DNA of 64,000 nucleotides from Escherichia coli O127:H6 str. E2348/69 (GTDB taxonomy: Bacteria; Pseudomonadota; Gammaproteobacteria; Enterobacterales; Enterobacteriaceae): the NCBI RefSeq assembly GCF_000026545.1, contig NC_011601.1; one strand, written 5' to 3'. The position numbers and the translations under genes are program-made. The notes below the pieces were generated by a model, which was given only the letters and a program-made list of their open reading frames with translations, made no database searches and had not been told where the DNA came from. Positions 672-42,146 of the stretch are shown here, piece after piece (the first letter of the stretch is position 1; every line of letters begins with the position of its first letter).

Positions 672-722
672 ATATTTATTGAATAATACTATTTCGACTG
701 AAATAACAGGTAAGGATACAAA

Positions 723-1151
723 ATGGGTTCATGGGGAATGGAGGCTCTCGAAAGCGACGAAGGGCTGGATTTGATTAATTGGGTAGAGGAACAACTGCAA
801 GATGATTCGACCTTTGATGCCGAGTCAATTGTTCAACGCTTAAGCCAGCATGAAGATTTGTTCGGATTTCAGGGAGATGAAGAATTTCTCTACGATAATA
901 ATGTTATCGGTCTCGTTGAACTTATCATTCAAAAAGCAGCCGGGAAAAAAATCACATCGAGTAAACAAATTGATCAACTCGACGGTTATCAGCTCACGTC
1001 GACTTTCAGCAAAAAACTCCAGGGCCGTTTACAAACAATCGACGACACACATGAGTGGATAATGCTTTTCGAGGGGCGAGCACGCGAAAAAGCAAAAGCA
1101 TATCTGATTGAGCTTACTGATAAATTAAGAGTAGTAAAGACAACAGCCTGA
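723..1151 (+). CDS. Small acidic hypothetical protein, 142 aa; N-terminus MGSWG resembles DUF4259-type proteins
   Basis: ORF with an AAGGA ribosome-binding site about 8 nt upstream and no homologue I can name with certainty. Family assignment is from memory of the MGxWG N-terminal signature. Confidence 0.55.
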   Translation: MGSWGMEALESDEGLDLINWVEEQLQDDSTFDAESIVQRLSQHEDLFGFQGDEEFLYDNNVIGLVELIIQKAAGKKITSSKQIDQLDGYQLTSTFSKKLQGRLQTIDDTHEWIMLFEGRAREKAKAYLIELTDKLRVVKTTA

Positions 1152-1970: not shown

Positions 1971-2051
1971 TTTAACTTCCTTATTAGCGCCTGAATGACT
2001 AAACCTGGACAACCATTCCTTGGGATTTATTTTTCTATAGTAGTTGATCAC

Positions 2052-2080
2052 ACGGGTGTTCACAATATGTAAACACCCGT
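2052..2080. promoter_or_regulatory. Perfect 9-bp inverted repeat (acgggtgtt-N11-aacacccgt) upstream of higB; candidate HigA operator
   Basis: Palindrome read directly from the sequence, about 80 bp upstream of the higB start in the higBA promoter region. Confidence 0.35.
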
Positions 2081-2136
2081 CTACACGTCACAATAGCACG
2101 TCCAAATTCCAAAACGTGAACATGTTTGTCTACGAA

Positions 2137-40657: not shown

Positions 40658-40809
40658 CTACTTCTTCGATTCGTAAGCGAGAACTGCCTTAAACTCCATA
40701 CCACGTTCTCTGATACTCAACTCACACAACGAGTCGCCTACCATCAACGTGAATCCCAGTACTGTACAACACAGTACGATGATTGCCACAAGGGCATATT
40801 TTGTCAGCA
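40658..40809 (-). pseudogene. hok: hok-family (HokE-like) type I toxin gene, inactivated by a 1-nt deletion
   Basis: Minus-strand translation [23 protein letters not shown] then a stop, followed out of frame by [26 protein letters not shown], which matches the Hok/Gef family (Hok[15 protein letters not shown]...LVGDSLCEF...[12 protein letters not shown], from memory). Restoring one G in 'atg(g)tagg' gives an intact 50-aa ORF. Confidence 0.7.
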
Positions 40810-40828
40810 TGTCTGTGTAAGTTCACAG

Positions 40829-41900
40829 AGATATTGCAATTGCCTCCGGATAAGTAAGGGGAGATTGCACTATGCAAATGCAGCATCTGATGGTTGGCTA
40901 TCCTAAGTACTACCAAACGGCCGATTATGCGTTGAGGCTTTCAGTGATGGCTGATATAGCAACAATGAGAATGAAGGCTCTGCACTTCTGGGATAAACAC
41001 GGTATTTCTGCAGCTTCTGAAGCCTTTGGCGTGTCCTGCCGCACGCTTTACTGGTGGCGTCAGTTACTGAACAAGGAAGGACCTGAGGGGCTAATCCCGC
41101 ACAGTAAGGCACCTCTGGTGCGACGAAAAAAACACTGGCATCCCGATGTGCTGAAAGAGATTCGACGCCTCAGGACAGAGCTGCCGAACCTCGGTAAAGA
41201 GCAGATTTTTGTTCGCCTGAAGCCCTGGTGCGAACAGCGCTATCTGGCCTGTCCGAGTGTTTCCACCATCGGCAGAATGATCGCTGCCGCACATGATAAA
41301 ATGCGGATGATACCTGTGCGTCTGGGATCGCGGGGGAAGGCACTGCTTGTCAAAAAGCGGTCTGCCAAACCCCGCAGGCCAAAGCACTACCGCCCGGTAA
41401 AGACAGGTGAGCTCATTGGGATGGACGCCATTGAGCTCAGAATGGGCGAACTGCGTCGCTATGTCATCACCATGATCGACGAATGCAGCAATTACGCGCT
41501 GGCGCTGGCTGTGCCGTCACTCAACAGTGATATCGTCAATCACTTCTTCAGCCGCGCAGCCCGGTTGTTCCCGGTCGGTATCAGCCAGATAATCACAGAT
41601 AACGGAAAAGAGTTCCTGGGAAACTTCGACAAAACGCTGCAGGAAGCCGCTATCAAACACCTCTGGACCTATCCCTACACGCCAAAAATGAACGCTATCT
41701 GTGAACGTTTTAACCGGACGTTAAGAGAGCAGTTTATTGAATTTAATGAGATTTTACTCTTTGAAGATCTGGCGCTATTTAACCAGAAGCTGGCGGAATA
41801 TCTGGTGCTGTATAACAGCAAAAGACCCCACAAGGCGCTCGCACTAATGACGCCCGTGGAATATATTTTAAAAGAGAATAAAAATTGCAATATGTGGTGG
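40829..41900 (+). mobile_element. Approximate extent of an IS481-family-like insertion sequence; boundaries tentative
   Basis: Single DDE (rve) transposase ORF. Candidate terminal inverted repeats 'atattgcaatt' at the left (about 40829) and its reverse complement within 'aaaaattgcaatatg' at about 41886-41900. No clean target-site duplication was found. Confidence 0.4.
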
Positions 41901-42146
41901 ACCCATACAATGTCTTGCCTCCTTGCAAAGAAGAGACTAACATCCGAATTGCTTAGGTTCGAACGTAGGCCTCAGGTTGATAGAAATATCGCCTGGGGCT
42001 TTTGTCCATCTGGAACCTCGCGAATGCTTAACGCCAGACAGCCTCAAGCACCCAACGCCATTCTATACCTGTTAATTTTCCCTGCGATGTTCACCTTTAA
42101 ATGCCGGAATGCTGCTCGCAAAATAAAAACGCCCCATCATTTCTGA
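40872..42146 (+). CDS. DDE-type (rve/integrase core) transposase with N-terminal HTH, IS481-family-like
   Basis: HTH (ISAASEAFGVSCRTLYWWRQ), DDE residues in GMDAIE / ITDNGKEF / ERFNRTLRE, and C-terminal KRPHKALALMTPVEY. The last ~80 codons of the 424-aa ORF may be read-through into flanking DNA. Confidence 0.7.
   Translation: MQMQHLMVGYPKYYQTADYALRLSVMADIATMRMKALHFWDKHGISAASEAFGVSCRTLYWWRQLLNKEGPEGLIPHSKAPLVRRKKHWHPDVLKEIRRLRTELPNLGKEQIFVRLKPWCEQRYLACPSVSTIGRMIAAAHDKMRMIPVRLGSRGKALLVKKRSAKPRRPKHYRPVKTGELIGMDAIELRMGELRRYVITMIDECSNYALALAVPSLNSDIVNHFFSRAARLFPVGISQIITDNGKEFLGNFDKTLQEAAIKHLWTYPYTPKMNAICERFNRTLREQFIEFNEILLFEDLALFNQKLAEYLVLYNSKRPHKALALMTPVEYILKENKNCNMWWTHTMSCLLAKKRLTSELLRFERRPQVDRNIAWGFCPSGTSRMLNARQPQAPNAILYLLIFPAMFTFKCRNAARKIKTPHHF

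Follow-up and report, generated by a model that had tools for sequence, protein, structure and literature searches.

Zhang et al. 2012 defined immunity families by their occurrence in heterogeneous polyimmunity loci and by their fusion to SUKH, SuFu, Imm33 or Imm68 (PMC3482391), and reported that heterogeneous polyimmunity operons are usually devoid of toxin genes (Zhang et al. 2012, PMC3482391). One of these families, Imm66, is mostly alpha-helical, is fused to partners of the SUKH, SuFu, Imm33 and Imm68 type, and comes from the same phyla as DUF4259 (PMC3482391); its listed partners are Ntox48 and Tox-ABhydrolase3. The immunity families so defined resemble DUF4259 in several respects: they are small and cytoplasmic, they stand in co-directional arrays with SUKH, SuFu, Ank, Imm33 and Imm51, they are fused to Imm68, Imm33, SUKH and SuFu, and they lie in operons without toxin genes. 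DUF4259 (PF14078) is itself an uncharacterised bacterial Pfam family of about 130-160 aa, and in the searchable literature we found DUF4259 named once, incidentally, and PF14078 never as a family. Another point of comparison is provided by gut Bacteroidales, which reportedly (Ross et al. 2019) carry acquired interbacterial defence clusters that are multi-gene, lie on mobile elements and are said to have been validated experimentally.

Here we describe a gene that we assign to DUF4259 in Escherichia coli O127:H6 str. E2348/69, where it lies near one end of a 64,000-nucleotide stretch of NC_011601.1 (the window, throughout this text); window bases 600-1250 match the E2348/69 chromosome at 100 % identity. 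Like the Bacteroidales clusters, the gene has no cognate toxin alongside, appears to have been acquired horizontally and occurs in some strains of a gut species but not in others; those clusters are multi-gene and mobile, whereas the E. coli copy is a single chromosomal gene, known from sequence alone. It also differs from the families of Zhang et al. 2012 in that it stands neither in an array nor beside a toxin.

Results

Features of the gene and its flanks

The gene occupies positions 723-1151 of the window on the plus strand and encodes a 142-aa acidic protein, WP_000536065.1 (named 'DUF4259 domain-containing protein' in RefSeq), which the ORF call, RefSeq, hhalign, AlphaFold2 (AF2) and AFDB50 together identify as a divergent DUF4259 member; it is also a candidate orphan immunity protein. 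The ORF is a real gene and no chance ORF, because a homologue in Listeria costaricensis is 64 % identical to its product, the alignment with DUF4259 extends over its full length, and RefSeq annotates it. The original prediction had described a 142-aa ORF with a good ribosome-binding site and an N-terminus rich in Asp and Glu, and both features were confirmed. By direct reading, a Shine-Dalgarno-like AGGTAAGGA at 708-716 (+) has its AAGGA core 6 nt before the ATG. The protein starts MGSWGMEALESDEGLD (codons 1-16, 723-770, +), which the alignment columns identify as the most conserved DUF4259 motif, running from the first residue onward, and its charge is polarised along the chain: residues 1-71 contain 18 acidic and 2 basic residues, and residues 72-142 contain 9 acidic and 13 basic ones. 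Overall, the product has a pI of 4.5, 27 D/E against 15 K/R and a net charge of about -12, and we read neither a signal peptide nor a transmembrane segment in its sequence. The C-terminal basic helix that had also been proposed was borne out in part: a helix is predicted at residues 118-136, but it is only mildly basic.

The flanks were likewise as first described, with IS200 on one side and higBA on the other. Upstream lies a copy of IS200C (1-674, +) with tnpA at 113-571 and a terminal hairpin at 653-671. Downstream, in convergent orientation, a HigA-like HTH antitoxin gene (1243-1662) and a HigB toxin gene (1659-1970) occupy the minus strand (1243-1970) as independent neighbours, and hycI follows. 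The convergent intergenic region, common to the gene and higA, contains a GC-rich, terminator-like inverted repeat, AAGGGCGC ... GCGCCCTT, at 1161-1192 (no strand assigned), of which our scan marks 1167-1188 on the minus strand. Promoter scans of the IS-bearing and the IS-free locus returned nothing above chance. Within the coding sequence, an A7 homopolymer at 945-951 (+) is the point from which natural frameshifted alleles, with 112-aa products, depart.

Membership of the DUF4259 family

Direct scans of the ORF with NCBIfam, PADLOC and PHROGs gave no match, and the Pfam HMM for DUF4259 matched it weakly (i-E 0.011, 17.1 bits, residues 2-82 against positions 1-78 of the 133-position model); as a yardstick, 17 of the 21 sequences of the family alignment match DUF4259 at E <= 0.001. 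A word-indexed search returned almost exclusively E. coli alleles, together with the one 64 %-identical protein of L. costaricensis. Exhaustive HMM searching of 1.84 billion representatives delineated a tiny clade, consisting of the E. coli and Listeria proteins and a 35 %-identical 142-aa protein, and then gave about 40 proteins of 140-165 aa that start MGAWGIKALESDEGLDV. The HMM of the E. coli clade recovers DUF4259 proteins at E-values of 1e-8 to 1e-4 among 1.84 billion proteins, and a profile of the roughly 40 MGAWGIKALESDEGLDV-type proteins recovers at least 613 proteins, nearly all of them already annotated as PF14078. Furthermore, when the E. coli clade was compared by hhalign with 36 sequences of the main DUF4259 family, the two profiles aligned at a probability of 99.2 % (E 1e-19) over 136 of 142 columns, that is, over the full length of the protein.

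The residues G2, W4, G5, A8, L9, D12, G14, L15, D58 and E66 are invariant in 40 sequences including the ORF product, and the conserved N-terminal columns, taking invariant and near-invariant ones together, are M1, G2, W4, G5, A8, L9, E10, S11, D12, G14, L15 and D16. The family resembles the ORF product in being colinear with it from residue 1 to the C-terminus, in the motifs MG[AS]WGxxALESDxGLD and [FY]LYD[NV], in E66, and in low pI (4.05-5.04 across the family). Unlike the main family, to which it is 22-30 % identical, the clade of E. coli, Listeria and Isobaculum is a divergent outlier, with a deletion of about 7 residues and, in the C-terminal half, IDDTHEW where main DUF4259 proteins have NEVPDEDGEREIVELW. 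This divergence accounts for a Pfam score of only 17 bits, and also for the many alleles that are called 'hypothetical protein' in RefSeq. Taken together, the profile-profile comparison, the invariant motifs and an AF2 model that matches DUF4259 models in AFDB (TM 0.7-0.87) establish that the ORF product is a genuine but divergent DUF4259 member. The label 'DUF4259-like', given to it at the outset, was correct, although it could be demonstrated only with profile and structure methods, Pfam alone giving E 0.011.

Predicted structure

AF2 modelling from the 40-sequence alignment gave a pLDDT of 87.9 and a pTM of 0.85, and so remedied an earlier model from a 5-sequence alignment that was too poor (pLDDT 66.5). 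The model comprises helices at residues 12-24, 33-41, 55-72, 93-105 and 118-136, together with short strands. A Foldseek search with this model against AFDB50 returned almost only DUF4259 models (TM 0.6-0.87), a match of prediction against prediction because DUF4259 is without an experimental structure. Among solved structures none resembled the model, and sequence searches of the PDB with the single sequence and with the 40-sequence profile found nothing significant.

Gene neighbourhoods and fusions of DUF4259 in other bacteria

We examined the surroundings of DUF4259 genes at individual loci and in a one-genome-per-species scan, in which ORFs were called at 78 loci from Firmicutes, Actinobacteria, Bacteroidota and Fusobacteria. 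In Fusobacterium DUF4259 belongs to a co-directional array of DUF6630/DUF4241, DUF4253, DUF1963, WGR, DUF2262, DUF4259, SUKH-3, UPF0167, MORN, Ank and SUFU, and some of these arrays also include DMP19 and DUF5713. One Paenibacillus locus reads DUF5713-DUF4259-TPR/Imm51; a second reads DUF1963-DUF5713-SMI1_KNR4/SUKH_6-DUF6138-DUF1877-DUF4259, with DUF4259 last. In a betaproteobacterial MAG, DUF4259 lies in a series of small genes, Imm33 and RraB among them. In a Pfam census of 74 loci, the immediate neighbours included Imm-NTF2 (4), DUF2262 (3), Imm68 (2) and many housekeeping genes, and the neighbours at +/-2-3 included Ank (5), MORN (3), SUFU (2) and DMP19 (2). Many other DUF4259 members stand in unremarkable neighbourhoods.

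Fusions were found in Clostridia, where the DUF4259 ORF is joined to, or lies 4 nt upstream of, multi-immunity-domain proteins of 1.5-2 kaa. Segments of these proteins match Imm33 (8), Imm68 (7), SUKH_6/SMI1_KNR4 (7), DUF7832 (7), SUFU (6) and DUF4261 (6). At one clostridial locus (L081, 6001-7521) a single ORF combines DUF4259 (2-133), Imm68 (160-316) and Imm33 (346-431). The AFDB matches S2LJU0 and A0A416JSA2 agree with these fusions, as do matches to a 1237-aa Knr4/Smi1-like protein and to a 507-aa DUF2185 (Imm33) protein. Heterogeneous polyimmunity loci are seen for the DUF4259 family at large; the copies in E. coli, Listeria and Isobaculum stand outside such loci. As a separate observation, DUF4241, DUF4253, DUF4261, DUF2262, DUF7832, DUF5713, DUF6138, DUF1877, DUF4274 and DUF6966 recur with DUF4259 in the arrays and giant proteins of six Fusobacterium and six clostridial loci, and these may likewise be unrecognised immunity domains.

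We also looked for a toxin or nuclease partner, running Pfam on the immediate neighbours, on those at +/-2-3 and on tightly linked large upstream genes. Among the matches listed, which comprised the top 20 families at about 74-80 loci, no cognate toxin stood next to DUF4259; rare toxin matches could have escaped a list of that depth. NCBIfam detected no toxin domain in 10 tightly linked upstream proteins, and the sole hint of a toxin was a weak fragment match to Endonuclea_NS_2, two genes upstream in Myroides. Next to the E. coli gene itself there is no toxin gene or toxin cassette.

Distribution and origin in E. coli

Of 5426 complete E. coli genomes, 725 (13 %) carry the gene, always as a single chromosomal copy and never on a plasmid; in each of these 725 the match spans 80 % or more of the gene, with an identity of no less than 95 %. 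Searches of plasmid and phage collections with tblastn gave no match to the ORF. Its nearest relatives are in two Bacilli, Listeria costaricensis (64 % aa, 67 % nt) and Isobaculum melis (36 %), and the E. coli, Listeria and Isobaculum copies are all solitary, with no immunity genes nearby. The GC content of the gene is 42.4 %, and its GC3 is 0.40 compared to 0.64-0.68 in hycI and hycE. This difference in GC3, together with the nearest relatives in Listeria and Isobaculum, indicates that the gene is foreign and came from another bacterial lineage, and it was probably acquired horizontally from a Firmicute.

In carriers without the insertion sequence the gene order is hypF-hydN, DUF4259, higA-higB, a 250-aa hypothetical gene and hycI. 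Elsewhere the same slot is filled by ascG-ascF-ascB, followed by higA-higB-hypothetical-hycI or by higA alone. The DUF4259 gene is therefore a cassette that takes the place of the asc operon between hydN and hycI. The right-hand boundary of the cassette is a REP-like sequence at about 1195-1242 (no strand assigned), where homology resumes in an alignment with the asc layout (L002 vs L019). E2348/69 itself is without the ~250-aa hypothetical gene between higB and hycI, having only a 163 bp spacer at window positions 1974-2136; in other strains (L002 9459-10214, L019 4902-5645) the product of this gene begins with a hydrophobic, signal-like stretch.

Junction alignment demonstrated that the IS200C copy is specific to E2348/69: in other strains hydN lies directly upstream of the DUF4259 gene, without IS200. 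The element is a strain-specific insertion, incidental to the gene. It sits 48 nt upstream of the ATG and has replaced the native 5' region, which makes expression in E2348/69 uncertain, and this copy may have been silenced by the insertion. The mobile context that the original prediction had invoked is weak, because plasmid and phage matches are absent. Two structural details of the junction can be added. In an IS-free strain (L002 7974-8001), a perfect 10-bp-stem hairpin, GGTTCATCGC-agatta-GCGATGAACC, followed by TTTATTG, lies directly upstream of the ribosome-binding-site region, and in E2348/69 the IS200 end (653-674, which includes the hairpin of the element at 653-671) adjoins precisely the point of the native hairpin. 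The native hairpin may be a terminator, a 5'-UTR element or the IS200 target. Upstream of the window, the hydN-hypF region of E2348/69 is a pile-up of ISEc21, an IS3 fragment and ISEc13 (L001 1-7400), followed by the IS200C with which the window begins.

Comparison of E. coli alleles gave a pN/pS of about 0.4-0.6, on only 8-10 differences. SSGw1 carries a nonsense allele at codon 100, and frameshifted 112-aa products that arise from the A7 tract occur on dozens of contigs (P0096 on 27 of them; also P0063); for these frameshifts, pseudogenisation at a slippage-prone tract, phase variation and sequencing error are all possible explanations. In addition, a 145-aa allele is common, which has an in-frame 9-nt duplication, FLYDNYDNNVIG (YDN), inside the conserved YDN motif; it is found at L100 601-1038 and in hits H36-H46, in ST131-type genomes, and RefSeq calls it 'hypothetical protein'. 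From these alleles, constraint within E. coli looks weak or relaxed.

Two further features were recorded elsewhere in the window. rpoS (29474-30503, minus strand) is split in two ORFs of 172 aa and 146 aa and is described as 'frameshifted' in RefSeq. The interval between iap and cysH (about 40658-41906), where K-12 has its type I-E CRISPR-Cas locus, holds a gene of the Hok/Gef family together with a truncated integrase-core pseudogene.

Discussion

DUF4259 stands in immunity arrays and is fused to immunity domains; by the criteria of Zhang et al. 2012 it behaves as an immunity domain, and the E. coli protein is therefore read as an orphan immunity protein. With slightly better than even confidence, we take the ORF product to be a horizontally acquired orphan immunity protein against a polymorphic toxin, toxin binding being suggested by family association. 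The product would be a cytoplasmic, mostly helical, strongly acidic DUF4259 protein. Its target would be the toxic C-terminal domain of a polymorphic toxin that a rival bacterium injects, a domain that it would bind and neutralise. It would be an orphan copy in the asc-operon slot, and the lack of a cognate toxin gene alongside would point to pre-emptive protection against the toxins of other bacteria, not to self-protection. One might guess that the uniformly low pI of the family fits a toxin directed at nucleic acids. Of the three options first offered for the protein, immunity is thus favoured by family context; an anti-defence role found no support in the PHROG, PADLOC and phage searches, and a DNA mimic is considered below. 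DUF4259 may even be the Imm66 of Zhang et al. 2012, to which it is likened by description only, the supplement text of that study naming neither DUF4259 nor Imm66.

Several observations count against the immunity reading. No toxin gene stands beside DUF4259 among the matches listed for about 74-80 loci, so the case is one of guilt by association. Members of the E. coli, Listeria and Isobaculum clade stand alone, and many family members lie in unremarkable neighbourhoods. An interface co-evolving with variable toxins would not usually show a motif that begins at residue 1 and is invariant across phyla; the motif could reflect a conserved ligand or an enzymatic role instead. Finally, constraint is weak, nonsense, frameshift and 3-aa duplication alleles occur, and an IS200 lies upstream.

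The main alternative, which is partly compatible with an immunity function, is that the gene is a decaying passenger, useless in E. coli and kept by linkage in certain lineages. We consider this unlikely, while giving it real weight. A passenger would be consistent with the pN/pS of about 0.4-0.6, the SSGw1 nonsense allele, the recurrent A-tract frameshifts and the YDN duplication in many genomes, with the IS200 48 nt upstream in E2348/69, with the absence of the gene from 87 % of complete genomes and with the lack of a partner gene at the locus. However, intact alleles predominate (cluster P0012, of 142 aa, by itself comprises 315 sequences), and the coverage and identity given above hold for each of the 725 matches in genomes. 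Moreover, across the phylum boundary the orthologue in Listeria still shares 64 % identity and has kept every family-invariant residue, and the E. coli gene is kept where higB has been lost.

A role as DNA mimic, or as an inhibitor of another sort outside polymorphic toxins, is a good deal less likely; the highly acidic N-terminal half could, for example, block a restriction enzyme, a nucleoid protein or another DNA-binding protein. The net charge of about -12, the excess of 18 acidic over 2 basic residues in the N-terminal half (residues 1-71) and the family pI of 4.05-5.04 are all compatible with mimicry, and genes of the DMP19 family, which is named after a Neisseria DNA-mimic protein, occur in DUF4259 arrays. 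Anti-restriction genes are typically on mobile elements, yet PHROGs, PADLOC and the phage and plasmid collections are without a match. Structurally, the AF2 model resembles no solved DNA mimic, and the fusions of the family are to Imm33, Imm68, SUKH and SuFu, none being to anti-defence modules.

A third proposal, prompted by adjacency, would make the ORF product a third component or regulator of HigB/HigA. PD-lambda-2 is a three-gene defence system, and in PADLOC HigB matches PD-Lambda-2_A (1.3e-15) and HigA matches PD-Lambda-2_B (8.9e-14); the ORF itself is immediately beside higA, convergent with it, and has one inverted repeat in common with it. HigA, however, covers only positions 9-115 of the 402-position PD-Lambda-2_B profile, its N-terminal quarter, which marks the pair as related to PD-lambda-2 but much smaller, and the ORF has no PADLOC match. 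Distribution also separates the two. Among the 5426 E. coli genomes the higA region is found in 2508 and full higBA in 1091, against 725 for the DUF4259 gene, so that HigBA is the older and wider occupant of the site; at least 366 genomes have higBA at the same site without the DUF4259 gene, so the two are not one unit. The DUF4259 gene persists even where higB has been lost, ascGFB fills its position elsewhere, and homologues in other phyla are not beside HigBA. The likeness of HigBA and PD-lambda-2 to the DUF4259 ORF is thus one of physical adjacency only, and the link to higBA implied by the original prediction is unsupported. Distribution and the PADLOC result for the ORF largely refute this role, which we regard as highly improbable. 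Many E. coli genomes, we also observed, keep higA without higB.

An accessory function in the maturation of hydrogenase-3/formate hydrogenlyase, which position alone (between hydN-hypF and hycI) would suggest, deserves next to no credence and is effectively refuted by distribution and composition, as the gene occurs in just 13 % of E. coli genomes, has a foreign GC3 of 0.40 against 0.64-0.68 in hyc genes, has homologues in unrelated contexts and gives way to the asc operon in other strains.

The orphan immunity protein is therefore the reading we retain. A bolder form of it, which as a whole we judge rather unlikely, would have DUF4259 be an unrecognised immunity family or a never-deposited Imm66, whose invariant MGxWG..ALESDxGLD N-terminus would plug the active site in one widespread class of toxins; some E. 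coli (EPEC E2348/69, ST131, UPEC) would then carry a Firmicute-derived orphan against a toxin of gut Firmicutes, and this, if true, would amount to acquired interbacterial defence across phyla. In practical terms the value is modest, as a single small gene is concerned and the reasoning follows established comparative-genomics logic without a new kind of system. The picture of the locus itself is corrected: IS200 and HigBA are incidental, and the real context is an asc-alternative cassette between hydN and hycI. Should the immunity reading be correct, a DUF family named only once, in passing, in the searchable literature would gain a functional hypothesis, and clinically important E. coli lineages would have one more orphan immunity gene in their accessory genome, with possible effects on competition in the gut.
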